Assembly (NCBI GenBank): GCA_001029675.1
Contig: CP011210.1
Location: 320,193-384,192 of the forward strand
Source of the DNA: Candidatus Beckwithbacteria bacterium GW2011_GWC1_49_16
GTDB taxonomy: Bacteria > Patescibacteriota > Microgenomatia > UBA1400 > CG1-02-47-37
Reading direction: 5' to 3'
DNA: 64,000 nt
Shown in pieces: positions 1,662 to 28,951 of this stretch (position 1 is the stretch's first letter; each line of letters opens with the position of its first letter). The position numbers were made by a program, and so were the translations under genes. The notes beneath the pieces are model-generated. The model was given only the letters and a program-made list of their open reading frames with translations. It made no database searches and had not been told where the DNA came from.

Positions 1662-2459
1662 CTAGTTGATTGGCAAAAATATCTCAAACCTTTGTTTGAT
1701 AGGGTTAGGGTTGATTTTCCAATACACCTCGTAATCTCGAATGCCCGCTCTCACCTTATATCCTTTTAATCGACAGTATTTCTCAAGCTCTTTCCAGAAA
1801 AGTGAGAGCATGTTACCAGAGCCACGATATGTGTAAGTTATTACCTTCCCAGGACTGAATGTCATTCGCTTAACGATGCTCTTGAATTCGTTTTTGACCT
1901 TCACCCCTTCATTAGCAAAAGCACAGATTTTGATACGGCTTTCTTTGGGTCGATATCCCTGGTCTTCAAAAATAGAGAGGGTTATAAAATTATTTCTTTT
2001 ATTGGTAAACATTTTACTAAGTTCCTGACAATAACTGTCAATTTTAGCGTATGGTCCGACTTTATTGATGTAATAAACTTCAAAAGGATCTATCGTCTTA
2101 ATTTCAGGATCTACTAATGTCCCATTGCTCTGAAGATTAGAAAGGTATTGTTCTATGTTATTAAGACTAAATTTAAGACGCTCGATCTCATTTTTGATAA
2201 GATGCTTTTTTTCACTGAACAGGTTTGATAAGTTTCCTTTGTTTTTCAAATATCTTTTAATTTCTTCCAGGGATATTCCTAAAGTTGAGAGGAGTAATAT
2301 CATTTGGTAGTCCAGGACTTGCCGCTCTTGATACAGACGATAGTTAGATTGGTTGATTTTGACAGGCTTAAGAACCCCTTTCTCGTCATAAAAGTGGATA
2401 GTCCTCTTAGTCGTGCTAGCTAGCTTGGCGAGTTCGCCTGTAGTGATTAAATTGTTCAT
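1662..2459 (-). CDS. MerR-family transcriptional regulator with C-terminal GyrI-like effector-binding domain (BmrR/AraC-E type)
   Basis: N-terminal MerR helix-turn-helix (TTGELAKLASTTKRTIHFYDEKGVL) followed by a coiled-coil linker and a GyrI-like small-molecule-binding C-terminal half. The gene is AT-rich relative to its flanks. Confidence 0.75.
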   Translation of the reverse strand: MNNLITTGELAKLASTTKRTIHFYDEKGVLKPVKINQSNYRLYQERQVLDYQMILLLSTLGISLEEIKRYLKNKGNLSNLFSEKKHLIKNEIERLKFSLNNIEQYLSNLQSNGTLVDPEIKTIDPFEVYYINKVGPYAKIDSYCQELSKMFTNKRNNFITLSIFEDQGYRPKESRIKICAFANEGVKVKNEFKSIVKRMTFSPGKVITYTYRGSGNMLSLFWKELEKYCRLKGYKVRAGIRDYEVYWKINPNPIKQRFEIFLPIN

Positions 2460-2462
2460 TAT

Positions 2463-2494
2463 TTGACAATAACGTAACGTTATACTTTATGATA
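2463..2494 (+). promoter_or_regulatory. MerR-type promoter/operator: TTGACA, long spacer containing perfect 7-1-7 inverted repeat ATAACGT-A-ACGTTAT (2469-2483), TATGAT
   Basis: The palindrome lies between the divergently transcribed MerR-like regulator and the UvrA-like gene. A -35 TTGACA (2463-2468) and a -10-like TATGAT (2489-2494) give a ~20-bp spacer typical of MerR-regulated promoters. Confidence 0.4.
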
Positions 2495-2510
2495 GCCTAT
2501 AACTTACTAA

Positions 2511-4772
2511 GTGTCAAATATGATGAACTCAATAAATATAAAAGGCGCTCGAGAGAATAATCTCAAAGGTATAGACGTCACCATTCCTAGAAACAAGATT
2601 GTATGTCTGGTAGGTGTATCTGGGTCGGGAAAGTCTACTATCGCTTTTGACATCATCGCCAGAGAGGGAGAAAGGCAGTATTTTGAATCCTTACCTTCCT
2701 ACGCTAGAAGATATCTCCATAAGAGCAATAGACCAGAAGTTGACGATATTAAGGGAGTTTCAGCTTCGATTGTGATAAGTCAAGATCGAGTAAGGGGTAA
2801 TCCGAGATCAACTGTTGGAACGCTTACGGAGGCTTATACCTATTTGCGCTTATTGTACTCGCGGGTCGGTTTGCCTTCGATGGACTCGTTCTACTATTCT
2901 TTTAATCACCCTTACGGTGCCTGTAAGAAATGCAAAGGTTTAGGTCGGGCGGTTGAAGCTAATGTCGATAAAATTTTGGACAAAAATAAAAGTCTTAACG
3001 AGGGCGCCTTAATCCCCAAAGAATGGTATGTGGGTGGTAGGCAATGGAGTATTATTAGGGCCAGTCGTTACTTTGACATGGACGAAAAATTGAAAGACTT
3101 CAGTGATTATGAGTTGGATAAACTGTTGTTTGCGCCGCCGGAAATGCTGGAATCGGACGGCGAGTATATTGTTGACCGATGGACCTTTCAGGGGATTGTC
3201 TACCGGATCCAACATAGAAATACCAAAGTCCACCGCGGACCATCCAAGCGGGACTTGCAGTATTTTGATTTTGTCGATTGCCCAGAATGCCATGGTGGTC
3301 GTCTTAATGAGAAGGCTTTAGCTGTTCGAATAAATGGCAAGAGTATAAGTGAGGCAGGCAACATGCCATTAGAGGAATGTTTTACATTTGTTAGAAGCAT
3401 TGATCATATAAATGCTAGAGTTATAAAGCCAAGATTGGAAGAGCAACTTCAAAGTTTGATCAACATTGGTGTTGGTTATTTGTCCTTAAATAGATCTGCA
3501 GACACATTATCAGGGGGTGAAGCTCAGAGAGTAAAAATGGCAAGGCAATTGAGCTGTGATTTGATTGAGAGTGTATATGTTCTTGATGAGCCAACAGCCG
3601 GTCTTCATCCGCGAGATGTAGCCAAAGTGGTTCAGAATCTAAAAAGACTACGAGACAATGGTAATAGTGTCATAGTGGTTGAACATGATGAAGCGGTAAT
3701 AAGAAACGCAGATCATTTAGTGGAAATTGGACCAGGCGGAGGCAAAAAAGGTGGGGAAATTGTAGCGGAAGGGAAAATTGGCAATTTGATAGCCAGCCCT
3801 AGGTCATTGACGGGAAAGTATCTAGAGGGAGATAAGAAAATTGAAGCAAAGAGAGGCTACAGAAAAGCTTTGGGCTACTTAAAAGTAACGAATGCGACTA
3901 GACACAATTTAAAGAATTTGAATATAGATATCCCTACAGGTGTCTTAGTAGCCCTGACGGGAGTATCAGGTTCGGGCAAGAGCTCACTGGTTGAAGAGGT
4001 TCTAAATCAGCACAGGAGTAAGGTCATTTTAATTGATCAGGGTCAAGTTGGAGCTAATAAGAGAGGTTGTATTGCCACTTATGTGGGAGGATTTGACAGA
4101 ATTAGAAAGTATTTTGCTGACGAGCACAGAATGCGCCCAAGTTTTTTTAGCTTTAACTCTCAGGGACGTTGTGAGCTCTGTAAAGGTTTAGGCTTTATCG
4201 AGATGGATATGAATTTTTTAGGAGACGTCAAGATAAGGTGCGAAAGTTGTGGTGGTTCAAGATATAAAGAAAAAGTTTTGAGATACAAATATAAGGGTAA
4301 GAACATAGCTGAAGTTTTGTCTATGACAGCTGCTGAAATAAGAGATTTTTTTGATAGCCAAGAAATAAAAGAACAAATGGGCTTGCTTGACGAAGTCGGG
4401 TTGGATTATATGGAGATGGGACAAACTCTAGACACTTTATCAGGAGGAGAATCGCAAAGGTTAAAATTAGCCAGCAAGTTGCAAGCAAAAGGAGAGTTTT
4501 ATATCTTAGACGAACCTACTTCTGGTTTACATTTTGCTGATGTTGAAAAATTGCTAAATCTTTTAAATAGGCTTGTTGATAGTGGCAACACTGTCTTGGT
4601 AGTTGAACACAATCTCGACGTGATTAAAAATGCCGATTGGGTTATTGATCTGGGTCCAGAAGGAGGGGAAAAAGGAGGTCGGGTTGTAGCCCAAGGGAAA
4701 CCGGTTAAGATAAGTGGTAGCAACCAATCTCACACCGGAACATGTTTGAAGGAAGTCTTGAAAAATGGTTAA
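2511..4772 (+). CDS. UvrA-like double ABC ATPase paralog (truncated, class II/III UvrA; DrrC/Ecm16-like)
   Basis: Two ABC modules carry Walker A GVSGSGKST/GVSGSGKSS and signatures LSGGEAQR/LSGGESQR. CxxC zinc modules are present (CKKCKGLG, CPECHGG, CELCKGLG, CESCGG). At 753 aa it is well short of canonical ~940-aa UvrA, implying loss of the UvrB-binding/insertion domains. AT-rich. Confidence 0.85.
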   Translation: MSNMMNSINIKGARENNLKGIDVTIPRNKIVCLVGVSGSGKSTIAFDIIAREGERQYFESLPSYARRYLHKSNRPEVDDIKGVSASIVISQDRVRGNPRSTVGTLTEAYTYLRLLYSRVGLPSMDSFYYSFNHPYGACKKCKGLGRAVEANVDKILDKNKSLNEGALIPKEWYVGGRQWSIIRASRYFDMDEKLKDFSDYELDKLLFAPPEMLESDGEYIVDRWTFQGIVYRIQHRNTKVHRGPSKRDLQYFDFVDCPECHGGRLNEKALAVRINGKSISEAGNMPLEECFTFVRSIDHINARVIKPRLEEQLQSLINIGVGYLSLNRSADTLSGGEAQRVKMARQLSCDLIESVYVLDEPTAGLHPRDVAKVVQNLKRLRDNGNSVIVVEHDEAVIRNADHLVEIGPGGGKKGGEIVAEGKIGNLIASPRSLTGKYLEGDKKIEAKRGYRKALGYLKVTNATRHNLKNLNIDIPTGVLVALTGVSGSGKSSLVEEVLNQHRSKVILIDQGQVGANKRGCIATYVGGFDRIRKYFADEHRMRPSFFSFNSQGRCELCKGLGFIEMDMNFLGDVKIRCESCGGSRYKEKVLRYKYKGKNIAEVLSMTAAEIRDFFDSQEIKEQMGLLDEVGLDYMEMGQTLDTLSGGESQRLKLASKLQAKGEFYILDEPTSGLHFADVEKLLNLLNRLVDSGNTVLVVEHNLDVIKNADWVIDLGPEGGEKGGRVVAQGKPVKISGSNQSHTGTCLKEVLKNG

Positions 4773-4825
4773 TACTTTTTCTGCATGGTTTTTAATATTG
4801 TTCAAGACTGCTAGAATAGTTTAGT

Positions 4826-5869
4826 ATGTCGCTATCGATTGGGATTGTCGGTTTGCCGAACGTGGGGAAATCCACGCTTTTCAACGCGCTTTTGAAAAGG
4901 GCGGTTGCCGACGTCGGGGACTACCCTTTTACCACGGTCGAGCCCAACACCGGCGTAGTGGAAGTGCCCGATGAAAGGCTAACTAAACTGGCAGATGCTT
5001 TGAAAATCGAGAAACGGGTGCCGGCGGCGGTGAAGTTTTATGACATTGCCGGTTTGGTCAAGGGAGCCCACGAGGGCGAAGGCCTGGGCAACCAGTTTTT
5101 GGGGCACATCAGGCAAGTGGACGCGATTTTGCACCTGGTGCGGGGATTTTCGGCGGAGAAAGTGCCCCACGTTTCCGGCCGGGTAGACCCGGTCCATGAC
5201 TTGGCCACGGTAAACTTGGAGTTGACTTTGGCAGATTTTGAAATCGTCTCTAGAGCGGTGAATGAAACCAGGGGGGACAAAGATAGACTGGCGGTTTTGG
5301 AAAAGCTTTACGGGGCATTAAAGCAAGGCAAGCTAGCCCGGGAGGCGGATTTAACCGACGAAGAGCAGGTTGCCGTAGCCGACCTGAATCTGTTAACCCT
5401 AAAGCCGGTGCTTTATGTTTTGAACCTCGACGAGGCAGCGGTAGAGGGCGGAGCGGAAGTTAAGGGTTTACCGGAGGTGATGCTGATTTCGGCTAAGCTT
5501 GAAGCGGAGATCAATGAATTAGCTGAGAAAGAGCGGGACGAGTATTTAAAAGAGCTGAAGCAAGACGAACCCTTTTTAGACAGGCTGATTAAGCGTTGCT
5601 ACAGTTTACTTGATTTAATCACCTTTTTTACGGTCAAAGGCGGTAAACAAGCCCAGGCCTGGCCCCTGAAGCGTGACGGGACGGCCCTGGAGGCGGCCGA
5701 GGTGGTGCACACTGATTTTGCCAAGAATTTTATCAAGGCCGGAGTGATTTTATGGCAGGATTTGGTCAGGTCCGGCGGTTGGGTGACTGCCAGAAAAAAA
5801 GGGCTGGTAAAAGCGGCGGGAAAAGGGTATATACTAAAAGACGGTGAAGTAGTAGAATTCTTTACATGA
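4826..5869 (+). CDS. ychF: Ribosome-binding ATPase YchF (Obg-family GTPase)
   Basis: G1 motif IVGLPNVGKSTLFNAL, YchF-type N-terminal G-domain and C-terminal TGS-like domain (KGYILKDGEVVEF). Confidence 0.9.
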   Translation: MSLSIGIVGLPNVGKSTLFNALLKRAVADVGDYPFTTVEPNTGVVEVPDERLTKLADALKIEKRVPAAVKFYDIAGLVKGAHEGEGLGNQFLGHIRQVDAILHLVRGFSAEKVPHVSGRVDPVHDLATVNLELTLADFEIVSRAVNETRGDKDRLAVLEKLYGALKQGKLAREADLTDEEQVAVADLNLLTLKPVLYVLNLDEAAVEGGAEVKGLPEVMLISAKLEAEINELAEKERDEYLKELKQDEPFLDRLIKRCYSLLDLITFFTVKGGKQAQAWPLKRDGTALEAAEVVHTDFAKNFIKAGVILWQDLVRSGGWVTARKKGLVKAAGKGYILKDGEVVEFFT

Positions 5870-10823: not shown

Positions 10824-11795
10824 TCAAGCCTTTGGTTTGGCAAGGCGGCGGGGGCGAGATTCGCCTAAGAACACCCCAAGAAAAATGATGACCATTGCTA
10901 GAATTTGGGGCCAGGTGACTGATTCTTTTAGAAGTAAGAATGAAACGGGGATGGCAAAGACTCCGGTGAGATAAATAAACAGAGAGGCTTCGGAAGCCTC
11001 AATTAAATCCTGGCCTTTGATGTAAAAGGTGAGGGCAATAATGGAGCCGAAAAGGGCCATGTAGCCTGAAGCCAAAGCCACCGAGGGGGCTTTGAGCAAA
11101 GTGACCGAAGTAGACAGGCCGGCTTGGTTGAGCATGAAAAACAAGACTATCGCCGAGGCCAAGTAGCCCAAGCCGGTGACCATGAATTTGGGCTTGCCCT
11201 GATAGAATTTCTTGGCCACAAGGTAGTAGACGGCGATAAGCAGGTTGTGAGCCAGCACCAAGAGGTTGCCTAAAAAAGAAAAATTAATTTTTCCTATCCT
11301 GTTAGTTAAAAGCGGCTCGACGACCAAAAGGCCGGTACCAATTAGGGCTAAAGCCAGGCCGAGCCACTCCCGTCTTTCCTGTTTCTCTTTGAGAAAATAG
11401 ATGCCGCCAACGGTGATCAGTAACGGATAAGTGGCGGCAATCAGCGACGCTTCGATGGCCGAAGTTTGTTTGAGGCCGGAGTAGAGTAGGCCCAAAGAGA
11501 TGGGGGTGGCCAGAAGCTCGAGGGCGACAGAATAAAGGATAGTTTTAAGTGATGGTCGATGTTTTACCAGGAGGATTATCAAAAAGGGGAAAATGAGGAT
11601 GGAGGCGATGAGGTAGCGAAGGTAAAGAAACTGAAATGGGGAGACGAAGTTAAGCGAGGGTTTGACCAGGGGTAAAGCCGCGCCCCAAATGACAGCGTTG
11701 ACCAAAAGGAGTAAGTAGGCTTTTTTCCGGGCAGGAGTCATGGGTTTATTTGAGCCTGACGACGACTTGATCCAGGGTGAGGCTTTGTTGTTCAC
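10824..11795 (-). CDS. EamA/DMT-family membrane transporter (10 TM)
   Basis: Two repeated 5-TM EamA-like halves, hydrophobic throughout. The real start is probably the internal Met (MTPARKK), since the first ~50 nt overlap hisS. Confidence 0.5.
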   Translation of the reverse strand: MNNKASPWIKSSSGSNKPMTPARKKAYLLLLVNAVIWGAALPLVKPSLNFVSPFQFLYLRYLIASILIFPFLIILLVKHRPSLKTILYSVALELLATPISLGLLYSGLKQTSAIEASLIAATYPLLITVGGIYFLKEKQERREWLGLALALIGTGLLVVEPLLTNRIGKINFSFLGNLLVLAHNLLIAVYYLVAKKFYQGKPKFMVTGLGYLASAIVLFFMLNQAGLSTSVTLLKAPSVALASGYMALFGSIIALTFYIKGQDLIEASEASLFIYLTGVFAIPVSFLLLKESVTWPQILAMVIIFLGVFLGESRPRRLAKPKA

Positions 11796-12987
11796 CGGTG
11801 GTCATGTCTTTGAGAGTAACTTTGTCGGCTTTAGCCTCGTCGGGGCCGATCATCAACACAAAAGGAATATTTTTGGCGGCAGCATATTTTAGTTGTTTAT
11901 CAAGATTTTCATCCTGAGGAAATATTTCCGTTTTAATGTCAGCAGTTCTCAATGTGTTGGCCAAGTTTAAAGATTTTCCTTCGTATCCCGGAAATATGGT
12001 AATCAGCGCTTTTATTACCGAAGTTGCTTTAGGGATTAGATTCATTTCAGAGGCGGCTTCAACCATTCGATCAAATCCGAAAGCAATACCTACCGCCGGC
12101 GTGTTTGTTCCACTTAGTTGATCAATCAGCTTATCGTAGCGACCGCCACCGCCTAGCGATCCCGATTCAAATTCCGGAATAATAACTTCAAAAATCATGC
12201 CGGTATAATAATCAAGTCCTCGGGCCAGATAGGGGATGAATTCGATTCTATCCTCAGGTACGCCAGAAGAGATGCTAAACCCAATAATTTTTTCTAGTTG
12301 TTTTGTCGGCCGAGCTTGTTTTAATAGGTTGTTTATTTTTTGAAACTGCTCTAGGGTTACTCCTTTCTTTTTTAACTCCATTTGTACCTGGTCAACAGTT
12401 TTTTTATCCAGTTTGTCAAGAGATTGAATCACTGAAAGTGATTTTTGTTCGGTTATCCCAGACTTTTTGATAACATCAAAAAGAATTTGCCGGTCGTTGA
12501 TACGTAGCGTCACGTTGGGAAAACCGACATTTTTAAAAGCGAAATAGGTACAAGCGATGATTTCGGTATCGGCCAACGGTGAAGTGGTGCCAAAGATATC
12601 AATGTCGCACTGAGTAAATTCCCGATATCTACCTTTTTGTGGTTTATCCGCCCGGTAAACATTTTGGAATTGATAGCGACGGAAATATTTGGGTAATTGA
12701 TTTTTGTACTGGGTTAAAACTCTGGCAGTGGGTACGGTTTGGTCATAACGGAGGCCAACTTCTCTGTTTCCCCGATCTTTAAAGATGTAAATCAACTTAT
12801 CAGCTTCCTTGCCATATTTTCCAAGTAATAAATCGGCGTATTCCAGAGTGGGAGTCTCTAGGGGTTCAAAGCCAAAAAGTTCAAAGGTTTGTTTAATTTT
12901 TTCCAGCACGAAATCCCGCTTTCTTTTTTCATTGGGTAAAAAGTCCCGAAAACCTTTTAGAGTCTGGGGCAGGTTTAGTTTAGCCAT
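11746..12987 (-). CDS. hisS: Histidyl-tRNA synthetase
   Basis: Class II aaRS motifs and the HisRS N-terminus (LPQTLKGFRDFLP), GGGRYD motif 3 region, C-terminal anticodon-binding domain. Confidence 0.9.
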   Translation of the reverse strand: MAKLNLPQTLKGFRDFLPNEKRKRDFVLEKIKQTFELFGFEPLETPTLEYADLLLGKYGKEADKLIYIFKDRGNREVGLRYDQTVPTARVLTQYKNQLPKYFRRYQFQNVYRADKPQKGRYREFTQCDIDIFGTTSPLADTEIIACTYFAFKNVGFPNVTLRINDRQILFDVIKKSGITEQKSLSVIQSLDKLDKKTVDQVQMELKKKGVTLEQFQKINNLLKQARPTKQLEKIIGFSISSGVPEDRIEFIPYLARGLDYYTGMIFEVIIPEFESGSLGGGGRYDKLIDQLSGTNTPAVGIAFGFDRMVEAASEMNLIPKATSVIKALITIFPGYEGKSLNLANTLRTADIKTEIFPQDENLDKQLKYAAAKNIPFVLMIGPDEAKADKVTLKDMTTGEQQSLTLDQVVVRLK

Positions 12988-13009
12988 AGAGTTATTTTAT
13001 CATTAAATT

Positions 13010-13690
13010 TTAAAAAGAGAGATCATTATTAAGTTTTTGCATCATGCAGCAGGCTATTCCTGGATAAAGTCCGGGAAACAAGGGGAAAAACTTGATGCCG
13101 TCAACGGAGGCTTCTTCAAAATCTTTGAATCCTTTGGGGTCAAGCCCTGATAATCTGCCGGTGACAATGAAAAACTGCTGAGGTTCTTGTCTGGTTTCTC
13201 CTTCAAAGAAAGAGTTTAAAACTTTTTCTAGATCTTGAGCCACTTGAGGTGAATTTTTTGGTCCGCATTGAATTTCTAAAGAGTTAGGGATGAATTGACA
13301 CAGTGGCCCGGTCGGTAAAAGCCCCGGCCACAAAACCACTTTACCGATATCAAGATTTTTTGCCAGTTCAATATTTTTCCAGTTAGGGTCGCCTAGAATG
13401 ATAAAAATACCACAGTCAGATTCCGCCCCATGAATGTCAATTACTTGCTGGTATTCACTGCCAGTTTGGATGAGGCGGAAAGCGAGTCTTTCTTCCAGTA
13501 ATTTAGAATCGGGATTGCCCGGACCAGATCGGTTAAGATCAGCCTCAAGGTAGCGCTGGTTTTCTGTCAGGGCTTGAGGATTGGCAACAATCGAATCGAA
13601 ATTAAATTTCGACTTTAACTTTTCCACGATTGGAATAGAAAAAGCTTCGTCGCCGTGTACGGCTGTTAAAATTAATGTTTCTTTTGTCAT
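13010..13690 (-). CDS. Succinylglutamate desuccinylase/aspartoacylase (AstE/AspA) family zinc deacylase
   Basis: Zinc-ligand-like motifs HGDE (N-terminus), DLNR and DIHGAE are in the order characteristic of the AstE/AspA (M14-like) family. Confidence 0.6.
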   Translation of the reverse strand: MTKETLILTAVHGDEAFSIPIVEKLKSKFNFDSIVANPQALTENQRYLEADLNRSGPGNPDSKLLEERLAFRLIQTGSEYQQVIDIHGAESDCGIFIILGDPNWKNIELAKNLDIGKVVLWPGLLPTGPLCQFIPNSLEIQCGPKNSPQVAQDLEKVLNSFFEGETRQEPQQFFIVTGRLSGLDPKGFKDFEEASVDGIKFFPLFPGLYPGIACCMMQKLNNDLSF

Positions 13691-13706
13691 ATTTGTTTTA
13701 TGTTTT

Positions 13707-14600
13707 CTAAAGGCGGGCTTGTTCTAGGATTAGAATATTTTTTTGGCAGGTAAGACCGGTGTTTTGGCGACTTTGGTAGCTGAAGCAAAAGATCATAGAG
13801 AGACCGTAGGTTTGTAATAGTGATAGAGATTGGTTAAAAGGGGTGAACCAACTTCCAGTTTCTGAATCGTCCTGTCCAAAGAAAGCATAACCCAGTCCCT
13901 CTGGCAGAATTTCCAAAATCGTATTCTTTATGCTTTGTAGCGCCTCAGAAGTTAGCCTATCTTTCAGTTCGGCCAGTCGGTAGACTTTCCGTAAATCATT
14001 TATTGATACTTTGTTATTAATTAAGTCGAGCAGCTCTTGGTATGGAATTAGTCTTAAGTCTGAGGTTTGGATGTTTTCACTTGAGGCTAGGGTGATTATG
14101 GCAATACCGCCTTTTCTTAAAATCGTGCTAGCTTCCTTGAGAATTAAGGGGCTGATAGCTAGAGGGTTATAGTTTAGTAGATAGTCTAAGACTACCAAGT
14201 CTTGACTATTATCTTTAATTTCGGTATTCGTCGCGTTTGTAAGAAGAGGAGTAATTGATGGAGATTTTCTTTCTCTTAAACTGGTGATTATCTGGTTATC
14301 AAAATCAACTACTCTTAGGTCTCGGCAGGGGACGTCTAGGCTGTTGGATATAAAACTGATCACTTGGTCTGGTTCTTCAGGCGTGCCGGTTCCTAACATG
14401 GTTACTGATATAGGGACTGTGAAGCGGTTTCTGAGTTTCTCAGACACCAGGGGTATGTTAGCAACGGTGGCCAAGCTGGCTCCGATGGGAGGATGATTGT
14501 TGAGCACCTCCTCGCTAGGGCCTTGTTGAAAAAAATCTTCTAAACCTTTTCGGTAAGTAATTCGAGTGAGTACCTCACGGCGAGACTCTGCTGGCAACAT
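13707..14600 (-). CDS. Hypothetical protein, possible class-I SAM-dependent methyltransferase fold
   Basis: Weak motif-I-like VTMLGTGTPEE, post-I acidic VVDFD, motif II-like DLVVLDYLL, motif III-like LRKGGIAIITL. This is a low-confidence fold guess only. Confidence 0.3.
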   Translation of the reverse strand: MLPAESRREVLTRITYRKGLEDFFQQGPSEEVLNNHPPIGASLATVANIPLVSEKLRNRFTVPISVTMLGTGTPEEPDQVISFISNSLDVPCRDLRVVDFDNQIITSLRERKSPSITPLLTNATNTEIKDNSQDLVVLDYLLNYNPLAISPLILKEASTILRKGGIAIITLASSENIQTSDLRLIPYQELLDLINNKVSINDLRKVYRLAELKDRLTSEALQSIKNTILEILPEGLGYAFFGQDDSETGSWFTPFNQSLSLLQTYGLSMIFCFSYQSRQNTGLTCQKNILILEQARL

Positions 14601-14601
14601 A

Positions 14602-15564
14602 CTAAGTTAACAGATTTAGTAGCAGGCGGTAGAACTTTTCTGCTTTTACTCCTGAAATAATTTTGACAGCTTTAGTTTTGGAGGGAATAAGTTTTGTTTG
14701 CCCTCTATTTTTACCAGCCAAGTTGACTTGAATTCTTCCCCGGTAGGTTTTAGTGACGATGTTTGGATCAATCATTGCGGCGCTGACTAAAGGGTCATAG
14801 TAACAGTTGAAGTCGTAGTTATTTTTAAGAATTAACTCTCTTATCACTAGGCTATTTTTTTTGGTCAGCCGTTTTTGTTTAAGGTTTTGATTAAACTGCT
14901 CTAATGTTTTTTTGAGTTGGTTTTTAACGAGGGGAACCATGGCTGGTACGTAAAGAGTGGCGTTTATTGGAATTATTGTGGTAGGTATTGATGAGTTAAA
15001 GATAATATCGGCAGCCTCTGGATCAAGGTAAAGATTATAGTCAAGAATGTCTTGGGAAAGCGGAGGGCCGGGCATGGATTTAAATGCGCCTCCCATTAAA
15101 ATTATTTGATCGACTTTAACAATTAATGTGTCACGGCACTTTTCTATAAGTGTGGCAATATTGGTGAGGGGGCCTAGGCAGACTAAGGTAATTTTCTGGC
15201 GTTCGCTTTTAATTAAGTCGGCAAGTTTATCGAGAGAGTTATAAACCAAGATTTTTGGAGAAGGGTCTTGAGGGAGGGGAATTTTTTCCAATAGTGTCAG
15301 CTTATTGGCTCTGACACGGTCGATTTTTGGAAATACAGCCTGCCAGTTTCTATTCATGGCTCTAGTTTTACCTTTTATGATAGGGATGGGGTTGTTTATA
15401 AAAGTGAGAATTCTGGCTAAGTTACTGGTACCCAAGTTGGTTTCAGAAACACCATAAACTGTACTAAATGCTTTTATGTTAAATTTTTTAGAAAGTTGTA
15501 GCATTAAGATAGCAATTAGATCGTCGTTGCCTACATCGGTGTCTATATAGATGGGTTTTTTCAT
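14602..15564 (-). CDS. Inosine-uridine-preferring nucleoside hydrolase family protein
   Basis: N-terminal calcium-binding aspartate cluster IDTDVGNDD (the DxDxxxDD IU-NH fingerprint); ~320 aa. Confidence 0.8.
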   Translation of the reverse strand: MKKPIYIDTDVGNDDLIAILMLQLSKKFNIKAFSTVYGVSETNLGTSNLARILTFINNPIPIIKGKTRAMNRNWQAVFPKIDRVRANKLTLLEKIPLPQDPSPKILVYNSLDKLADLIKSERQKITLVCLGPLTNIATLIEKCRDTLIVKVDQIILMGGAFKSMPGPPLSQDILDYNLYLDPEAADIIFNSSIPTTIIPINATLYVPAMVPLVKNQLKKTLEQFNQNLKQKRLTKKNSLVIRELILKNNYDFNCYYDPLVSAAMIDPNIVTKTYRGRIQVNLAGKNRGQTKLIPSKTKAVKIISGVKAEKFYRLLLNLLT

Positions 15565-17276
15565 ATTTTCTTCATTTGCTCAAATGGCTGATCGTTATTT
15601 TTTGAGGCCTGAATTATTAGAGATGCGGCTCTATCTGAGTTGTCGTTGACAACTACCATATCGATGATTCCAGCCTCAAGCATGGCTTGAGCTTTTGAGG
15701 TAGTTATGTCTAGTTCTTGAAGGGAACGCTTCAATCGTGTGTCAACGTTTCCTTGATTTCTAGTAATTAGTCTATTTTTGAGTTCTCTGAGTGATGGGGG
15801 GAGAACAAGTACCAGCTTGGCTTGAGGAAGGAGTTTTTTAAGCTGGATAGCGTTATCGGTGCCTTCAAAAACGCAGAAAGCGTCGTTCGGAGTATTAGTT
15901 AGTTGGGTGATGATTTCTCTTTTTGTAACTCCATAGAGTTCGCCATTGGCCCGGTAGATTCCAGCGGTAAGCATTTCTCCGTTTCTCACTTGTTTTAAGA
16001 AATACTCTTTGGTTGTCGGTTGAATTCCTAAAATTTCTGCAGTATTTCTAGAAGGTCGAGTAGTTACCCTTTTAATCTGAGTTGAACCTGGTGCCTGATT
16101 GATAACTATTTGGGTTAAGGTAGTTTTACCTACCCCAGAGCTACCGAAGAGAATAATGACTTGTCCGGCTTTTTGGTTAAGTTCTTCTGGGAGCTCTGTA
16201 GGCGTTTGCGGTAGTTGCTCAAAGCCCTCGAGACTGAAAAGAATTTCTGTGCCTGACTGGAGAGTGATTAATGCTTCTGTTAGATAGTCAATAACGTTTT
16301 CCTCTTTTTCAGCCGCCCTGATTTGATTTGTAATGCTGGCCAACAAACCGTAGCCGGCGTCGGAGATATCTTGAAAAGTAAGGATCCTGCCAGATTTTTT
16401 TTGGATAGATTCTAAGAGTTTGAGGTTTGCCCAGATCACGCCTCGACTGAAAGGAATTAATGTTTCTGGAGGGATACTAGCTCCCGAACCGTCAGAGAAA
16501 GGGGCAAAGTAGGGAATAGTATAGTAAATGGCTTTTTCGTTTTTTGTCTCTAGGAAAAGTTTGCCGCCATCAAATCTTAAATCTCGACAGCAGACCCAAT
16601 CGAATATGTTCCTAACGGGCATAACTGCTTGATAGCCGGGAGTAATACCTGGAGAGCCAGTTTCAGTTTCTCGGTCGTATGGTCCTATACCACCATAAAA
16701 GCCCACAACTTCTAGACTTTGATTCTGAAAGATTTGAAGATATGCATTAAGGCAGCCTGGCCACCAACCGTCGTCAACAAGGATAATTTTGCTGTCGGTA
16801 CCCGTTTGGGTTATTTCTTCTGCCAGTATCTTGATTTGTTTTTCTAAAGAGGGCTCGCCTGGTCGGGGGCCGATGACTTCTCCGGCTGAATTGATTATTC
16901 TACCGATGCTTAAAATAGAGTAATCTTTCCCAGACTGTTGGTTGGGAGAAGAGATGAACCTATCAAGAACAACAACTCTGGCGTTTTGTTGTTTAGCATC
17001 AGCGACAGCCTGGTCAAGCAAAAAGGAGAGTTGTTGGTAGAAGGGCTTCTCGGCAACAGACACAATGGGAACTTTTTGTTTTTGGAAGGCAGCGGTTAGG
17101 GCATCTAAGATAGATAGGTTGAAAGCTTCAATGGCATCGTTGGGAATGTCAGCTTCAGTTAAACTGGGTATTTTAGTAATGGCGCCAAGGGTATCTTGAG
17201 TAAGCACGAAAGCCCCACCGGCCCAAAGAGCTTCAGGAGTAGATGTTAACTTTGAATAGGTTTTTAACTTTTCCAT
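15561..17276 (-). CDS. Fusion protein: unknown ~370-aa N-terminal domain + C-terminal guanylate-kinase-like domain
   Basis: C-terminal half carries the GMP-kinase P-loop and NMP-binding blocks (LFGSSGVGKTTL...TTRPSRN...E..G..Y.F). The N-terminal half has no motif I can assign; the KIILVDDGWWPG segment faintly resembles a PRTase PRPP loop. Confidence 0.6.
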   Translation of the reverse strand: MEKLKTYSKLTSTPEALWAGGAFVLTQDTLGAITKIPSLTEADIPNDAIEAFNLSILDALTAAFQKQKVPIVSVAEKPFYQQLSFLLDQAVADAKQQNARVVVLDRFISSPNQQSGKDYSILSIGRIINSAGEVIGPRPGEPSLEKQIKILAEEITQTGTDSKIILVDDGWWPGCLNAYLQIFQNQSLEVVGFYGGIGPYDRETETGSPGITPGYQAVMPVRNIFDWVCCRDLRFDGGKLFLETKNEKAIYYTIPYFAPFSDGSGASIPPETLIPFSRGVIWANLKLLESIQKKSGRILTFQDISDAGYGLLASITNQIRAAEKEENVIDYLTEALITLQSGTEILFSLEGFEQLPQTPTELPEELNQKAGQVIILFGSSGVGKTTLTQIVINQAPGSTQIKRVTTRPSRNTAEILGIQPTTKEYFLKQVRNGEMLTAGIYRANGELYGVTKREIITQLTNTPNDAFCVFEGTDNAIQLKKLLPQAKLVLVLPPSLRELKNRLITRNQGNVDTRLKRSLQELDITTSKAQAMLEAGIIDMVVVNDNSDRAASLIIQASKNNDQPFEQMKKI

Positions 17277-17288
17277 ATTTTCTCCAGT

Positions 17289-17316
17289 AAAAAACCCCGC
17301 GGCTGCGGGGGAGGGG
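17289..17316 (-). terminator. Rho-independent terminator (minus strand): CCCCGCAGCCGCGGGG hairpin + U6, 14 nt upstream of the GMP-kinase-fusion start codon
   Basis: GC-rich perfect hairpin followed by TTTTTT on the minus strand, downstream of the TrpR-like gene and inside the leader of the next operon. Confidence 0.6.
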
Positions 17317-17458
17317 ATAACTATTTAATTATTAGGGAATTAGCTATACCGCCCACAGCCACAGTCGGGAGGGGCGTGATGAACTTTGGTAGAAAAACCT
17401 TGTTTTATCATGTTAACACGCTAATATACAGGAAAGTTTGGAGTTGTCAAGCGTCAAT

Positions 17459-17749
17459 TTATCTTTTGTTTGGGAAAAGACGGTTTAAGATGAGGCGGTA
17501 GCCGCCGCGACCACGGTGGAGCCAGTAGGCCACGCGGGTAACGGTAGTGGTGGAAGTTTTGGCAAGGCGAGCGATTTCTTGGTAAGGTTTACCTTGGTGC
17601 AGTAACCGGACAACCTTAAAACGGCTAGAGAAAGTGTCGATTTCCTGCGGGGTAAGAAGGTCCCTGAAAAAGGCTTTGGTCTCGGCGAGGTTTTTGAGCT
17701 TGAGAATTGCCTGGTAAAGAATTTTGGTGTCGGGCGATAAAGGATTCAT
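17459..17749 (-). CDS. TrpR-like / YerC-YecD family DNA-binding protein
   Basis: ~96 aa; helix-turn-helix region YQEIARLAKTSTTTVTRVAYWL typical of the Trp-repressor-like YerC/YecD family. Confidence 0.6.
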   Translation of the reverse strand: MNPLSPDTKILYQAILKLKNLAETKAFFRDLLTPQEIDTFSSRFKVVRLLHQGKPYQEIARLAKTSTTTVTRVAYWLHRGRGGYRLILNRLFPNKR

Positions 17750-21951: not shown

Positions 21952-22036
21952 TGCCAGGGGAGGGAATCGAACCCTCATGGGTCAATGGCCCACACGATTT
22001 TGAGTCGTGCTTGTCTACCGGTTCCAACACCCTGGC
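21952..22036 (-). tRNA. tRNA-Leu (anticodon CAA), class II with long variable arm
   Basis: Reverse complement reads GCCAGGG-UG-...-CACGA-CUCAAAA-UCGUG-(long variable arm)-GAGGGUUCGAUUCCCUC-CCCUGGC-A. It has a 7-bp acceptor stem, a T-loop GGTTCGATTCC, and anticodon loop CU-CAA-AA. No CCA is encoded. Confidence 0.85.
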
Positions 22037-22135
22037 TTATGTGTATAATTCTACCACAAAGAATTTTCCAAGTCTTGACAGGATTTAGTAATACTGATAG
22101 GATTAGTAATAATTAATAGTGATTATTACTTTAAT

Positions 22136-22369
22136 ATGCAGGCAATAACTACAGTAACTCAAAAAGGCCAAATAACCTTGCCCAAGTCGTTGAGAGAATT
22201 GGTTAATATCGATTTGTTCGACAAAGTCATAGTGAAACTTGGCAAAGGATATTTGAGGGTAGAGCCGACAAAGGATATTTTAGATTTGGCAGGAAAGTAC
22301 CGGGCTAAAAAGGGTCAGTCAGCCTTGAAAGCTAGAGAATTGATGGAGAGAGAGTACACCAGGGTTTAA
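22136..22369 (+). CDS. vapB: AbrB/MazE/SpoVT-family antitoxin (VapB-like)
   Basis: Swapped-hairpin AbrB-type N-terminus (TVTQKGQITLPKSLRE), 77 aa, directly upstream of the PIN gene. Confidence 0.65.
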   Translation: MQAITTVTQKGQITLPKSLRELVNIDLFDKVIVKLGKGYLRVEPTKDILDLAGKYRAKKGQSALKARELMEREYTRV

Positions 22370-22372
22370 GAA

Positions 22373-22789
22373 ATGAAACCTCATTTTATTGACGCGAATG
22401 TTTTTCTAAGGACAGTAGTAGTAGAAGACGATCAAGTGTCTCATGATTGTAAAAAATTTTTAGAAAAAGTAAAACTGAATAAAGTAAGAGGGTTAACATC
22501 AAGCGTAGTGGTGGCGGAAGTGGTTTGGGTACTTGCTTCTTACTATAAATTGACCAGGCCTAGCATCGCTGAAGTGGTCGAGGCTATCACCAGCTTAAGA
22601 GGATTAAAAATAGTCAGAACCGATAGTATTAAGCTAGCCGTGGATATTTACAGGGACTCGGGAGTTAAATACGTCGACGCTTTAATTGCGGCCACAGATA
22701 AAATTCAGGAAAAGAAATGGGTGGTGGTGTCTTACGATAAGGATTTTGATAAGTTGGGAGTGAGACGGGTGGAGCCGGGACAGATATGA
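22373..22789 (+). CDS. vapC: PIN-domain toxin (VapC-like ribonuclease)
   Basis: PIN acidic residues: D near the N-terminus (FIDANVF), later E and D (YVDALIAAT); 138 aa; gene pair 4 bp apart. Confidence 0.7.
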   Translation: MKPHFIDANVFLRTVVVEDDQVSHDCKKFLEKVKLNKVRGLTSSVVVAEVVWVLASYYKLTRPSIAEVVEAITSLRGLKIVRTDSIKLAVDIYRDSGVKYVDALIAATDKIQEKKWVVVSYDKDFDKLGVRRVEPGQI

Positions 22790-23349
22790 TTAACGTCAAC
22801 CAATTGCGAAACGGCACGGCTTTTGAAGTGGAGGGAACGCCGTTTCTGGTGCTAAAGTACGAGTTTACCAAGATGGGCCGCGGCACCGGCAACATCAAAG
22901 TCAAGGTAAAAAATCTTAACACCGGGGCGGTGACCACCAAGACCTTTATTACCGGCAACAAGGTGGAAGAGATTAATTTGACCAGAAAAAAAATGCAGTT
23001 TTTGTACCAAGCGGGAGACCAAGCGGTGTTTATGGATGCTACCACTTTTGACCAGGTGGAACTGGAGGCGGAACTGATTAAGGAAGAGAGGGCCTATCTG
23101 ACAGAGGGCTTGGTAGTAGAAGTGTTGTTTTGGGAAGAGAAGCCGTTGTCGATTCAACTGCCGGTTAAAATCGAGTACGAGATCAAAGAAACCGGCCCGG
23201 GAGAGAAGGGCGATAGCGCTACTAACCTTTACAAGCCGGCCGTGCTCGCCAACGGCTTTAAAGTCAAGGTGCCGCTGTTTGTCAAAACCGGAGACAAAAT
23301 TAGGGTGGATACCAGGACAGGGGAGTACATTGAGAGAATTTCTAATTGA
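22786..23349 (+). CDS. efp: Elongation factor P
   Basis: Three-domain EF-P, 187 aa. The conserved loop reads FTKMGRGTGNIKV, i.e. Arg rather than Lys at the modified tip position. Confidence 0.9.
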   Translation: MINVNQLRNGTAFEVEGTPFLVLKYEFTKMGRGTGNIKVKVKNLNTGAVTTKTFITGNKVEEINLTRKKMQFLYQAGDQAVFMDATTFDQVELEAELIKEERAYLTEGLVVEVLFWEEKPLSIQLPVKIEYEIKETGPGEKGDSATNLYKPAVLANGFKVKVPLFVKTGDKIRVDTRTGEYIERISN

Positions 23350-27365: not shown

Positions 27366-28138
27366 GCAAAAGACAAAAGCTGGTGGCGGCTTCGCTGCTT
27401 TTAACCTTGGGGATTTTGAGTATCCAGTCGGTAGAGATAGAGGCCAGGTATCAAGCCATCGGCTTACTGGCCGGAGTGGCTTACGGGCTGTCGGCTTGGG
27501 CGATGTTTGAGGATTTGCGCGGGGTGGAATGGTTGACGGTTTTAATCTTGCCGGTGATGTACCCGGTGGCGGTAGCGCTTTTCTACTTTTTGTTGCCGGA
27601 GAGGTTTTTGACCCGGACGATGATTTTAGGTTTTTTTGGCATCGGTATGTATGCGCTACTTTTGACCGAAAACATTTTTAACGTGGCGGCAATCAGAACG
27701 ATTCAACTGTTGCGGGCGGCTCACGCGGTGGGGTTTTTACTGACTTTGATGGTGGCTTTTTTTCTCTGGGACACGATTTTTTCTTTCCGGCTTTACGGTT
27801 GGTGGAATGCTATCTTGGTTTTAGTCAGCTCGTTTCCATTGATTTTACAGGCGTTGTGGAGCGTAAATCTTGAGGAAAAGTTGACTGCCGAGGTGGTTTA
27901 TTACTCGGCGGCCTTGAGCTGGGCGCTTTTTGGATTGAGCCTGCTAGTTAGTTTTTGGCCGGTAACGATAACGGCGGCAGCCTTGTTCGTGGTAACGGCT
28001 CTATACGTTGGCTTGGGGCTGGTTCAGAACTATTTGAGCGGGCGGTTGTTCAAGAGAACCATAAGGGAATATCTTTGGGTGGGCCTGGCGGTGTTTTTGA
28101 TAACGTTTTGGTTGGCATCCTGGGGGGAAAAATTTTAG
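27362..28138 (+). CDS. Polytopic membrane protein, hypothetical
   Basis: ~7 predicted hydrophobic helices and no catalytic motif. Translationally coupled (4-bp overlap) to yebC. Confidence 0.4.
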   Translation: MSKRQKLVAASLLLTLGILSIQSVEIEARYQAIGLLAGVAYGLSAWAMFEDLRGVEWLTVLILPVMYPVAVALFYFLLPERFLTRTMILGFFGIGMYALLLTENIFNVAAIRTIQLLRAAHAVGFLLTLMVAFFLWDTIFSFRLYGWWNAILVLVSSFPLILQALWSVNLEEKLTAEVVYYSAALSWALFGLSLLVSFWPVTITAAALFVVTALYVGLGLVQNYLSGRLFKRTIREYLWVGLAVFLITFWLASWGEKF

Positions 28139-28320
28139 AGACACCAAGGCGAAGTAGAGGAGAGGGGAGCCTATAGTAATAGCAATACTTTTCACATAAT
28201 TATAGGACTCTTTTCACGAAATTTGTCAGACTTTAACTTCGAGTAATGAAGTAAAATAGATTAATATACCAACCCTTTTTGCTGTAAGGGTTTGATACAG
28301 TTTATTCAGAGGAGAGTAGG

Positions 28321-28329
28321 TGTGGATAA
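28321..28329 (-). promoter_or_regulatory. DnaA box, perfect consensus (TGTGGATAA = TTATCCACA reversed)
   Basis: Exact 9-mer read in the sequence. Confidence 0.6.
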
Positions 28330-28477
28330 CTATTTTTTAAGTAACTAATTGATAGAGTGATTAGTTTAGAGAGGGAAAGGGACGCGGTGGACGGTTAAAT
28401 AAACCGGAAGTGTTTGGCTTCTCTCTTTTTTAAAGACCCCCAAATTAGTAGGTAAGGGCTTTCTTCGGGTTGGCATT

Positions 28478-28505
28478 ACGTCGCACAATGTATCTTTTGC
28501 GACTA
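28478..28505. promoter_or_regulatory. dif-like imperfect palindrome GTCGCACAA-TGTATC-TTTTGCGAC (candidate Xer recombination site)
   Basis: Arms GTCGCACAA / GTCGCAAAA(rc) flank a 6-bp TGTATC centre, comparable to RGTGCGCATAA-TGTATA-TTATGTTAAAT. A half-site GTCGCACAAT recurs at 28805-28814. Confidence 0.3.
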
Positions 28506-28851
28506 TAGCCTTGGCGGCGGAGTGGAGGGGCGGAAGAAAAGCAAGATTTAAGCTTTGCCGGCGAAAAATTTTTTGGCAGCGGTTAAAGATGACAGGTTTA
28601 AGTTTAATTATTCCCCAACTAGCCCGCCTTGCCCTTTTTGGGCGGCGCGAACCTCTACCGAAAACATCAAACTCCCCTACACGTTATCATTGTAGGACAA
28701 CTACCTGCGGAAATAAGAAAAACTCGCGTTAGAGGCGATTTGGCGGCCTCGCCTTGAGTAAAAAAGGGTGGTTTAGGGTACAAAGTTCGGCCGACAATTT
28801 GAATGTCGCACAATATTGACTGGTTGGCGCTAGTTTGATAGAATAAACTAC

Positions 28852-28860
28852 TTATCCACA
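28852..28860 (+). promoter_or_regulatory. DnaA box, perfect consensus TTATCCACA (within 14-bp repeat ACTACTTATCCACA)
   Basis: Exact 9-mer; the 14-mer is repeated at 28920-28933. Confidence 0.6.
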
Positions 28861-28924
28861 CGTTTCCCTATAGTTTGAAATTCTAAGGTATTAAAAAAGC
28901 TTGTTATATTAACCCTTTTACTAC

Positions 28925-28933
28925 TTATCCACA
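28925..28933 (+). promoter_or_regulatory. DnaA box, perfect consensus TTATCCACA (second copy of ACTACTTATCCACA), 19 bp upstream of the xer start
   Basis: Exact 9-mer. Confidence 0.6.
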
Positions 28934-28951
28934 TCTTGGCACCTCAAGACT

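Follow-up and report, generated by a model that had tools for sequence, protein, structure and literature searches.

A predicted histidine leader-peptide attenuator in front of an enzyme cassette and hisS: a candidate histidine-regulon operon in Candidatus Beckwithbacteria

Few clues to gene function are as dependable as regulators specific for one amino acid, be they attenuators, T-boxes or repressors, and in other bacteria such regulators nearly always act on biosynthesis genes, transporters or the synthetase for that amino acid. In the his operon attenuator of Enterobacteria a short open reading frame (ORF) with adjacent His codons, of which the E. coli leader holds seven, precedes mutually exclusive antiterminator and terminator structures. 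In Firmicutes and Actinobacteria His T-boxes (RF00230) are found at hisS and his operons. Leader-peptide attenuators of the his type also occur in the B. cereus group, Peptostreptococcaceae and Erysipelotrichales, while YerC is the repressor HisR, which requires L-histidine for DNA binding and has as its common motif a palindrome of 20 bp with the pattern cacTTTAnnnnnnTAAAgtg (PMC9413887). Here, a 64-kb stretch of DNA (the window) from Candidatus Beckwithbacteria (GW2011_GWB1_47_15 / GWC1_49_16; Microgenomates, Candidate Phyla Radiation, CPR) was analysed, in which a predicted attenuator of this kind lies in front of a cassette of nucleoside-type enzymes followed by hisS and eamA (operon proteins AKM79131-AKM79136). 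The results favour, with a probability of roughly 0.55, a histidine-regulon operon, that is an attenuator-controlled enzyme cassette together with hisS and eamA that serves histidine acquisition or economy.

The unit is read from the minus strand in the order promoter, 23-codon leader, antiterminator/terminator, fusion gene, nucleoside hydrolase gene, a 297-aa orphan gene, AstE-type deacylase gene, hisS and eamA. An earlier sequence-only reading of the window had described a four-gene operon. The four ORFs lie where it had placed them (17276-15561, 15564-14602, 14600-13707 and 13690-13010, encoding 571, 320, 297 and 226 aa and spaced by -4, +1 and +16 nt), but the extent of the operon had to be revised, as the transcription unit, having no terminator at this point, runs on into hisS, 22 nt beyond the deacylase gene, and into eamA, which overlaps the end of hisS. 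The features of the locus are as follows.

17459-17749, minus strand: hisR, homolog of the YerC/TrpR-family histidine repressor (PF01371, E 4e-22; TIGR02531 YerC/YecD, 74.8 bits)
17423-17450, minus strand: sigma-70-like promoter, TTGACA-16-TATATT, 11 of 12 consensus matches
17418-17411, minus strand: palindrome TGTTAACA, 3' of the promoter
17340-17411, minus strand: leader peptide ORF MIKQGFSTKVHHAPPDCGCGRYS, 23 codons, with tandem His codons CAT CAC at 17381-17376
17352-17364, minus strand: 5' strand of the predicted antiterminator, pairing with 17309-17297 (ViennaRNA)
17289-17310, minus strand: intrinsic terminator of the attenuator, CCCCGC-AGCC-GCGGGG followed by T6, hairpin at 17310-17295
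16227-17219, minus strand: PRTase-like (phosphoribosyltransferase-like) domain of the fusion protein, approximately aa 20-350, with the VDDG of a loop binding phosphoribosyl pyrophosphate (PRPP) at aa 167-170
15609-16166, minus strand: P-loop domain derived from guanylate kinase, aa 371-556 of the fusion protein (PF00625)
14602-15564, minus strand: IU-family nucleoside hydrolase (PF01156)
13707-14600, minus strand: 297-aa orphan protein, its match to class I methyltransferases (PF08241) borderline
13010-13690, minus strand: short AstE/AspA-family zinc deacylase, 226 aa (PF24827)
11746-12987, minus strand: hisS, histidyl-tRNA synthetase (TIGR00442, 384 bits, cut-off 287)
10824-11795, minus strand: eamA, EamA/DMT-family transporter (PF00892, E 2.7e-40)

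The block had been credited with its own leader and terminator at 17277-17458. Both exist, but the hairpin, followed by T6, stands 5' of the first gene, at 18 nt from the fusion ATG, and is part of an attenuator rather than an end-of-operon terminator. Folding of the leader in ViennaRNA with a ribosome stalled at the His codons resulted in the antiterminator (-30.8 kcal/mol) and no terminator hairpin, whereas only the terminator formed (-11.9 kcal/mol) with the ribosome placed at the leader stop codon. The pairing of 17364-17352 with 17309-17297 was also part of the minimum free energy structure of the whole leader, and a fold switch was predicted for 9 out of the 12 leaders tested. On these computed folds the leader is a predicted His leader-peptide transcription attenuator. 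Transcription would start from the strong promoter beside hisR and proceed through the 23-codon leader, in which two His codons stand side by side. A shortage of His-tRNA(His) would make the ribosome stall at these codons, the antiterminator strands would pair and RNA polymerase would read on, whereas at ample His-tRNA the ribosome would reach the leader stop and mask 17364-17352, allowing the terminator at 17310-17295 to form.

Conservation of promoter and palindrome extends to L004, L006, L007 and L097 (L-numbers denote the loci of relatives used for comparison), and equivalent His-containing leader ORFs were found in L003, L004, L006, L007, L097, L095 and L096 as well as at approximately 25 hisS loci. 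The L003 leader reads MVNLSITHLHHHIA, the leaders of L004, L007 and L097 contain NINHHNL, TNHHTHL and SVHHTHL, respectively, and L006 has a single His. Tandem His was enriched, HHH being found in 7 of 76 loci with His at 3.5% of small-ORF residues, as compared to LLL in 9 with Leu at 10.9%. No Rfam family was matched by the window leader, the best being Trp_leader at 16.4 bits (E 0.85); a known riboswitch in the leader was rejected on this account, the match reflecting a shared attenuator shape only. The locus resembles the enterobacterial his attenuator in its short ORF with adjacent His codons and its mutually exclusive antiterminator and terminator, and leaders of this kind precede his genes in L059, L060 and L064. 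It differs in that the leader ORF is almost leaderless and in that the attenuator governs hisS and non-biosynthetic cargo. There are also 2 His codons in the window leader as compared to 3-5 in the Firmicutes examples (PMC9413887). In the literature searched, nothing relevant was found on his regulation in CPR bacteria or on attenuation of a hisS operon in them, and no report of a his attenuator in these bacteria. Classical ribosome-mediated attenuation is here documented, computationally, for an aminoacyl-tRNA synthetase operon in CPR bacteria.

A second connection to histidine is provided by hisR, which lies directly 5' of the operon promoter and also precedes the leader in L004, L006, L086, L093 and L097. 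In L093 (6339-6390) and L086 (3273-3325) two tandem perfect HisR boxes, ACTTTA-N6-TAAAGT, are found right upstream of hisR at the head of hisR-[cargo]-hisS, which implies autoregulated hisR-cargo-hisS operons in Patescibacteria. While the position of hisR next to the regulated operon and the canonical boxes in these two loci agree with a HisR regulon, published HisR regulons comprise his biosynthesis and transporter genes only (PMC9413887), as opposed to the hisS, PRTase-like, hydrolase and deacylase genes found here.

A third type of signal was observed in a second clade of the fusion (clade B: L001/2, L008/9, L010/11 and L099), where the leader peptide is missing and a promoter-driven T-box-like RNA is found instead (L008 1770-1935; L001 9417-9597); by Rfam search, the window itself lacks such an element. 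RF00230 is matched from end to end. A mini Stem I carries a 7-nt loop, GUCACGA, which holds the His codon CAC, and comparison of L008 with L001 shows covariation in its stem. The bulge UGGG (UGGG-ACC) of the T-box-like RNA fits the discriminator C73 of tRNA-His, two terminators follow, and a tRNA-His(GUG) gene comes after the RNA, ending approximately 15 nt before the fusion ATG. A promoter-driven leader, a specifier-like CAC loop, the bulge and a terminator are thus shared with the His T-boxes of hisS and his operons, but Stem I is reduced, the score stays below the gathering threshold and the tRNA-His gene lies inside the transcription unit. Three independent candidate histidine sensors, namely leader peptide, T-box-like RNA and HisR boxes, converge together with hisS and tRNA-His on one enzyme set.

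The conservation of this set was evaluated over the fusion clade, with ten different gene arrangements, and over approximately 14 independent arrangements in all. In the neighbourhood search, which had been suggested from the sequence alone, fusion, hydrolase and deacylase were found to be co-conserved and the 297-aa gene was not. The hydrolase follows the fusion in 9 of the 10 fusion-clade arrangements, the exception being L008/9 with a HAD phosphatase and a 349-aa unannotated gene. It lies directly 3' of the PRTase-like gene in the window, L001, L003, L004, L006, L007, L010, L012, L095 and L097, one small ORF further on in L093, and divergently adjacent in L096. An AstE-type deacylase is present in 5 of the 10; in L007 hydrolase and AstE are fused into a single 529-aa protein, and in L086 and L096 the deacylase is replaced by an ArgE/DapE or M20 type. 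Wherever the contig is long enough hisS lies downstream, both in the fusion clade (6 of 6 contigs, usually with eamA) and among the relatives at large (L001, L003, L006, L007, L010, L093, L095 and L096).

Distant PRTase-like relatives, approximately 22-25% identical to the window domain and mostly fused to HAD, are again accompanied by hydrolase and hisS in new orders and fusions. L093 reads hisR, [HAD+PRTase-like], a 74-aa ORF, hydrolase, hisS and eamA; L095 has leader MKIKTTIYKTHHNN with terminator, a tRNA-like element, [PRTase-like+HAD], hydrolase and hisS; and L096 has leader MTYQSSIHHHHPLIFSPGGC (HHHH) with terminator, a standalone PRTase-like gene, an M20 deacylase, GNAT, hisS and tRNA-His, the hydrolase being joined on the divergent side by HAD and EamA. 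As the connection to hisS persists at such low identity and through other orders and fusions, it amounts to more than inherited synteny. Operon structure, attenuator logic, co-conservation with hisS and domain homologies all follow from computation. These results place the PRTase-like protein (with kinase or phosphatase), nucleoside hydrolase, N-acyl-amino-acid deacylase, hisS and eamA in the conserved core of an operon predicted to respond to His-tRNA charging. The tRNA-like element of L095 (2963-3063) is 101 nt long with insertions and was called tRNA-Gln(ctg) by ARAGORN; a loop in it reads CUUGUGG, its acceptor end is like that of tRNA-His, and it scores below the Rfam gathering threshold.

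The position of the cassette was further investigated in the 80 closest hisS loci in GTDB genomes, all from Patescibacteria or Microgenomates. The synteny M24 ... (hisR) ... hisS-eamA is common to many of these. A His leader with terminator stands straight before hisS in 14 Microgenomates genomes and before cargo genes plus hisS in 11 more. The cargo comprises hisG-hisC-hisD-hisB-hisI-hisE in L060, hisG-like and hisD in L059, hisG and hisC in L064, nucleoside hydrolase, HAD protein and an ArgE/DapE deacylase in L086, GNAT and AstE in L031, and an M42 peptidase with two unannotated genes in L028. In L061 (6283-6975) and L063 (6286-7002) a protein of 230 and 238 aa, respectively, lies between His attenuator and hisS; among NCBIfam models the L061 copy best matched two histidine racemases, CntK (52 bits) and HisR(Fuso) (48 bits), each short of its cut-off. 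Genes of no obvious relevance to histidine occupy the slot in L077 and L087. The window cassette thus takes a position that elsewhere is filled by enzymes of histidine biosynthesis or histidine release. When the remaining cargo proteins of the 80 loci were searched with a profile hidden Markov model of the PRTase-like domain, no relatives were found. A role of the domain as a replacement for HisG was considered, given its first place after the leader, like hisG in L059, L060 and L064; it was rejected as otherwise unsupported and because it leaves hydrolase and deacylase unexplained.

Apart from the cargo loci, hisD, hisC, hisI and hisE adjoin hisS in L019 (738-6665) and L070 (8299-14620, here with hisB), which are metagenome-assembled genomes of Woesebacteria and Paceibacterota. 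Some CPR lineages therefore encode histidine biosynthesis genes.

The his cargo raises the question of whether the cassette keeps the purine and PRPP accounts of histidine biosynthesis. For each histidine made, one ATP purine ring and one PRPP are used and aminoimidazole carboxamide ribotide (AICAR) is released. In a purine auxotroph without PurH the cassette, induced by His starvation, could replace adenine nucleotides by means of hydrolase, PRTase and kinase, and might dispose of or recycle AICAR, either by phosphatase and hydrolase or by a reverse PRTase reaction to PRPP. The his genes in the slot and in L019 and L070, the pairs of HAD and hydrolase genes under His leaders in L058 and L086, and the family member L094, which adjoins enzymes of aminoimidazole ribotide, agree with such a role. 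We nevertheless consider it distinctly unlikely: no his biosynthesis gene was found within the 64-kb window or on any cassette-bearing contig, the DNA covered by that check; his genes, where present, take the cassette's own slot, which suggests replacement over cooperation; and the deacylase is left unexplained.

Base composition offered an independent view of the unit. The block had been called AT-rich from the sequence, and GC content at third codon positions (GC3), calculated per gene, confirmed this with sharp edges. GC3 was 0.38-0.42 in fusion, hydrolase, 297-aa gene, deacylase and hisS (hisS 0.39), as compared to 0.55-0.63 in the flanks; eamA (0.60) and hisR (0.58) had values like those of the native genome and the M24 peptidase gene was also flank-like. 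The low-GC block is therefore exactly fusion to hisS (11746-17276), five genes and not four. Related loci L001, L003 and L006 have 33-35% GC. Based on the five-gene boundary, with approximately 0.39 inside and 0.6 on both flanks, the data suggest that cassette and hisS were exchanged as one unit from a low-GC Microgenomates donor.

An AT-rich, foreign-looking block of nucleotide-acting enzymes could also be a nucleotide-depleting or nucleotide-modifying anti-phage defence island, which had been offered as an alternative in the sequence-only reading. This is effectively refuted. The block holds the housekeeping hisS, is predicted to be under control of His-tRNA charging and is syntenic with translation genes; there are no mobile-element genes at the window locus, and no PADLOC-DB family was matched significantly (best E 0.0015-0.007, P-loop or methyltransferase fragments only).

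The first gene of the cassette encodes the fusion protein, annotated in the source genome as hypothetical or as guanylate kinase-like domain-containing. As had been observed, its N-terminal region is unmatched: residues 1-360 belong to no Pfam or NCBIfam family. A profile search with this region resulted in 423 representative relatives, many of which stand alone at 300-360 aa; among 37 longer relatives, 26 carry a HAD phosphatase and 4 a guanylate-kinase-like domain, and 21 are recognised by PF00156 (Pribosyltran). Compared with the PDB, the family profile gave OPRT (E 3.5e-5), then APRT, HGPRT, UPRT and PurF, and met type I PRTases exactly at the loop that the earlier reading had singled out as resembling a PRPP-binding loop. 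An AlphaFold (AF2) model of the N-terminal domain from 62 sequences reached a mean confidence (pLDDT) of 90.8. The domain was modelled separately, since Foldseek with the full-length model gave Gmk matches only; with the separate model the top 39 matches were all PRTases (APRT/XPRT/HGPRT/OPRT folds), albeit weak ones, with E approximately 0.01 and template modelling (TM) scores of at most 0.45. Conservation is complete or reaches 90% or more at R126, R138, Q147, D168, D169, D232, G238, P255, Y256 and P259 (alignments A3 and A6 of the family). In the window the loop is present as ILVDDG, in the context VDDGWWPGC, with D168 and D169 invariant family-wide; its consensus is VDDGxFxGxT in the broad family and VDDGLFDxxC in the kinase-fused clade. 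By profile and predicted fold, the N-terminal 360 aa or so is a putative, very divergent type I PRTase-like domain and an elaborated new branch of that fold. Like type I PRTases (PF00156) it has a VDD acidic motif that aligns, a PRTase-like fold core and remote relatives that reach PF00156. It differs in its double size (approximately 340 aa), its low TM scores to solved PRTases, the extra invariant motifs DWxCxRD, GGK and PYFxPFS, and the replacement of the distal G-x-T in the kinase-fused clade.

Full-length fusions were rarely encountered, with 10 clusters among 5.8 billion, all 10 with both domains, and none in a scan of 185,579 GTDB species genomes. A metagenome scan with alignment A2 added two new loci only, and a homolog search with alignment A3 gave nothing new, kinase words being dominant.

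The predominance of HAD among the partners of the domain is reminiscent of PRTase and phosphatase pairs that make ribosides, such as CobT/CobC and the C-nucleoside pathways with HAD phosphatases. Fusion of a PRTase-like domain to HAD in most relatives (26 of 37) implies a route from base to ribotide to riboside. In contrast to those pairs, the constant partners here are a nucleoside hydrolase and an N-acyl-amino-acid deacylase, under histidine control and adjacent to hisS.

The C-terminal part of the fusion had been taken for an unmistakable guanylate-kinase-like domain. At the level of the domain this is correct, as PF00625 matches residues 372-551 (E 2.4e-11, 44.1 bits against 25.2) and the domain superposes on Gmk with a TM score of 0.77 in Foldseek, but it is not a true Gmk. 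The Gmk equivalog TIGR03263 reached 69 bits as compared to a cut-off of 160. In alignments to 3tau and 7u5f the GMP contacts are substituted, with Tyr replaced by a gap or Q, Glu by Thr and Thr by Val, where the contact roles (Tyr of D/N-Y, Glu of L-E and Ser/Thr of Y-G-S/T) are those of the yeast and E. coli Gmk-GMP structures. The second acidic residue is ambiguous (E471), and the family consensus loses the same contacts. Standard Gmk identity was ruled out on the basis of the sub-cut-off score and the replaced contacts. The LID arginines R502, R506 and R514 are invariant in the fusion family, and the P-loop NMP-kinase fold and the TTRxxRxxxE phosphate-binding block are likewise kept in common with Gmk and its relative PhnN (ribose-1,5-bisphosphate phosphokinase). 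The differences are the lost GMP contacts, the Walker-A Lys to Arg change in 9 of 10 members and the fusion to a PRTase-like domain; PhnN itself scored 28.5 bits. Judged by its motifs, kinase activity of the window protein is plausible and is not assured for the family, in which the domain may bind nucleotide instead of catalysing transfer. A PhnN-like kinase that forms PRPP and feeds the PRTase is less parsimonious, a HAD phosphatase being found at the same position in most relatives.

Nucleoside hydrolase, PRTase-like domain and kinase also make up the classical chain of ordinary purine or pyrimidine salvage, from nucleoside to base to nucleoside mono- and diphosphate, which a CPR cell without de novo nucleotides would need, and the linkage to the His attenuator would then be an accidental insertion into a permissive, well-expressed slot. 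CPR operons are often of mixed function, the slot does carry the genes of L077 and L087, and standalone L094 adjoins purN, purL, purQ and purK. We regard ordinary salvage as unlikely, since linkage to hisS, His leader and tRNA-His persists down to 22-25% identity, and hisS shares one block of foreign composition with the cassette. Moreover, an ordinary PF00156 PRTase of approximately 177 aa is also encoded nearby in L001 and L093, so that the new family is not to be equated simply with the purine PRTase of the cell. The substituted GMP-contact Tyr, Glu and Ser/Thr, the prevalence of phosphatase over kinase in the relatives (26/37 vs 4/37), and the deacylase with its fusion to the hydrolase in L007 are not accounted for by salvage.

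The second gene had been read correctly as an IU-type nucleoside hydrolase (PF01156, 164.8 bits against 34.2). The N-terminal DxDxxxDD motif is present, and 12 module orthologs share D8, T9, D10, G12, D14, D15 and Y256-D257 without exception. As the Ca2+/ribose aspartates are invariant, we infer that the hydrolase is active. The catalytic His of group I inosine-uridine nucleoside hydrolases (IU-NHs) is absent, with the invariant Tyr256-Asp257 in its place, and LHDP of plant NRH1 aligns to YY-DP. All NCBIfam Rih equivalogs scored far below their cut-offs. Base preference is not readable, because Tyr-Asp replaces the His-Asp of the classical enzymes.

The assignment of the fourth gene to the AstE/AspA deacylases likewise held (PF24827, AstE_AspA_cat, 42.1 bits against 25). 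The zinc ligands H12, E15 and H87 and the motif D51-L-N-R54 are invariant in 6 orthologs. At 226 aa the protein is short, the Pfam match covers residues 3-115, no family of C-terminal domains was matched, and no PDB match was found in a sequence search. Zinc ligands and the carboxylate-binding DLNR arginine being kept, the enzyme probably strips an acyl group from an amino acid, most plausibly histidine on account of the regulon context.

The 297-aa protein had been noted for a weak methyltransferase-like pattern within the proposed pathway. The likeness is borderline (Methyltransf_11, PF08241, 22.2 bits against 21.2, beginning at profile position 19, past motif I), and membership of the pathway did not stand, the gene being an orphan. 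The protein has one other cluster only in 5.8e9, and neither an NCBIfam match nor a PDB match was found by sequence search. In relatives its place is taken by a radical SAM/SPASM gene (L006, L012), a 349-aa unannotated gene (L004) or nothing, so the gene lies outside the conserved module. The radical SAM protein best matches SPASM/AhbD-type maturases. A family of approximately 349 aa recurs downstream of the module (L009 3718-4767; L004 7739-8197) with 29% identity between clades and without a Pfam or NCBIfam match.

Deacylase, GNAT and transporter together allow for inducible resistance to an aminoacyl-nucleoside or histidine antimetabolite directed at histidyl-tRNA synthetase (HisRS), whereby more HisRS is made (in relatives tRNA-His as well), the toxin is cleaved by the deacylase or acetylated by GNAT, its nucleoside part is broken down by phosphatase, hydrolase and PRTase, and EamA exports it. 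The sensed signal, uncharged tRNA-His, is what such a toxin would cause. Pairs of GNAT and a peptidase-type hydrolase, as found in L031 and L096, recall MccE/MccF-type detoxification, and EamA-family proteins are often exporters. Yet the substrates of AstE and ArgE/DapE, which lose their acyl group, are N-acylated amino acids whose carboxylate is free; aminoacyl-N-nucleotide bonds are not cleaved, and the DLNR arginine is conserved. The hisS gene here is the syntenic housekeeping copy, the slot carries plain his biosynthesis genes elsewhere, and there is no toxin gene nearby. Resistance is thus improbable.

As tRNA-His is a queuosine tRNA, the cassette was also compared with salvage of queuosine or 7-deazaguanine for tRNA-His. 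This would involve a QueK-like hydrolase, a QueL-like radical SAM lyase, a PRTase~kinase acting on deazaguanine and a CAU/CAC leader that senses decoding by Q-tRNA-His. The hydrolase adjoins the radical SAM gene in L006 and L012, AsxRS and TyrRS lie near the module in L096, and the window encodes a 204-aa Vut_1/YhhQ transporter (54610-55224, minus strand; PF02592, E 5e-44) of a family that imports queuosine precursors. However, the module is always found with hisS, and tyrS, aspS and asnS never appeared as operon partners; the radical SAM protein is of the maturase type; and some of the substituted GMP-contact positions read the guanine face that deazaguanines keep. The deacylase is again unexplained and no tgt gene was seen nearby. 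We consider queuosine salvage highly improbable.

The histidine-regulon reading favoured here must be set against several observations that weigh against it. No clear Shine-Dalgarno sequence precedes the window leader ORF, which begins approximately 5 nt past the predicted transcription start. In the simple fold test L004 and L006 showed no predicted switch, and L003 was not evaluable. The window promoter contains a degenerate HisR-box match only, GTGTTAACATGATAAAAC. The T-box-like RNAs of clade B scored 26.5 (L008) and 25 bits (L001) as compared to a gathering score of 93, which is low because Stem I is cut to a 5-bp hairpin. At the protein level, the window protein alone has no PF00156 match, its PRPP loop lacks the usual G-x-T tail, and the Walker-A motif, GSSGVGKTT with K384 in the window, is GxxGxGR[ST] with Arg for Lys in the other 9 family members (alignment A1). 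One family member from outside the CPR, L094, does not lie near hisS. Finally, PRTase, HAD and hydrolase acting in turn on one base would be a futile cycle, and the true order or the substrates must therefore differ.

The sequence-only reading had proposed a pathway for a modified nucleoside. The enzymes are indeed of the nucleoside type, but hisS, the His leader, hisR and the his-gene slot move the interpretation to a histidine regulon. In the histidine-regulon reading the hydrolase would release heterocyclic base and ribose from a riboside, the PRTase-like domain would form a ribotide from a base and PRPP, the kinase-like domain, or the HAD phosphatase of most relatives, would act on the 5'-phosphate of that ribotide, and the deacylase would remove the N-acyl group from an amino acid with a free carboxylate, most plausibly freeing L-histidine. 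We infer these enzyme activities, the substrates and the physiological role of the module, which would be histidine acquisition or economy in a probable histidine auxotroph, in place of the his genes of its relatives. A more specific proposal is that PRTase-like domain, phosphatase or kinase, Tyr-Asp hydrolase and deacylase make up an unrecognised CPR pathway of histidine salvage or precursor supply that replaces the his operon behind the his attenuator, with the PRTase acting on an imidazole-type substrate (a histidine derivative or aminoimidazole) and not on a standard nucleobase. This is put forward tentatively, with the odds leaning against it.

The gene combination had been supposed to be undescribed, and no prior description of the module was found in the literature searched. 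The regulatory devices are of known kinds; their combination with this enzyme set, and the PRTase-like family itself, were not found there. Nutrient acquisition of ultra-small host-dependent bacteria is poorly understood, and the locus suggests that histidine supply is connected with ribosyl or nucleoside chemistry in such bacteria. It also provides a functional anchor for the unannotated PRTase-like family with its 423 representative clusters.

Besides the fusion-to-hisS block, other AT-rich stretches in the window lie at 2001-5000, 22001-23000, 28001-29000 and 52001-55000, with 38-43% GC as compared to approximately 50%. The Vut_1/YhhQ gene is located in the last of these islands (52-55 kb), beside tRNA-Tyr at 53833-53919.

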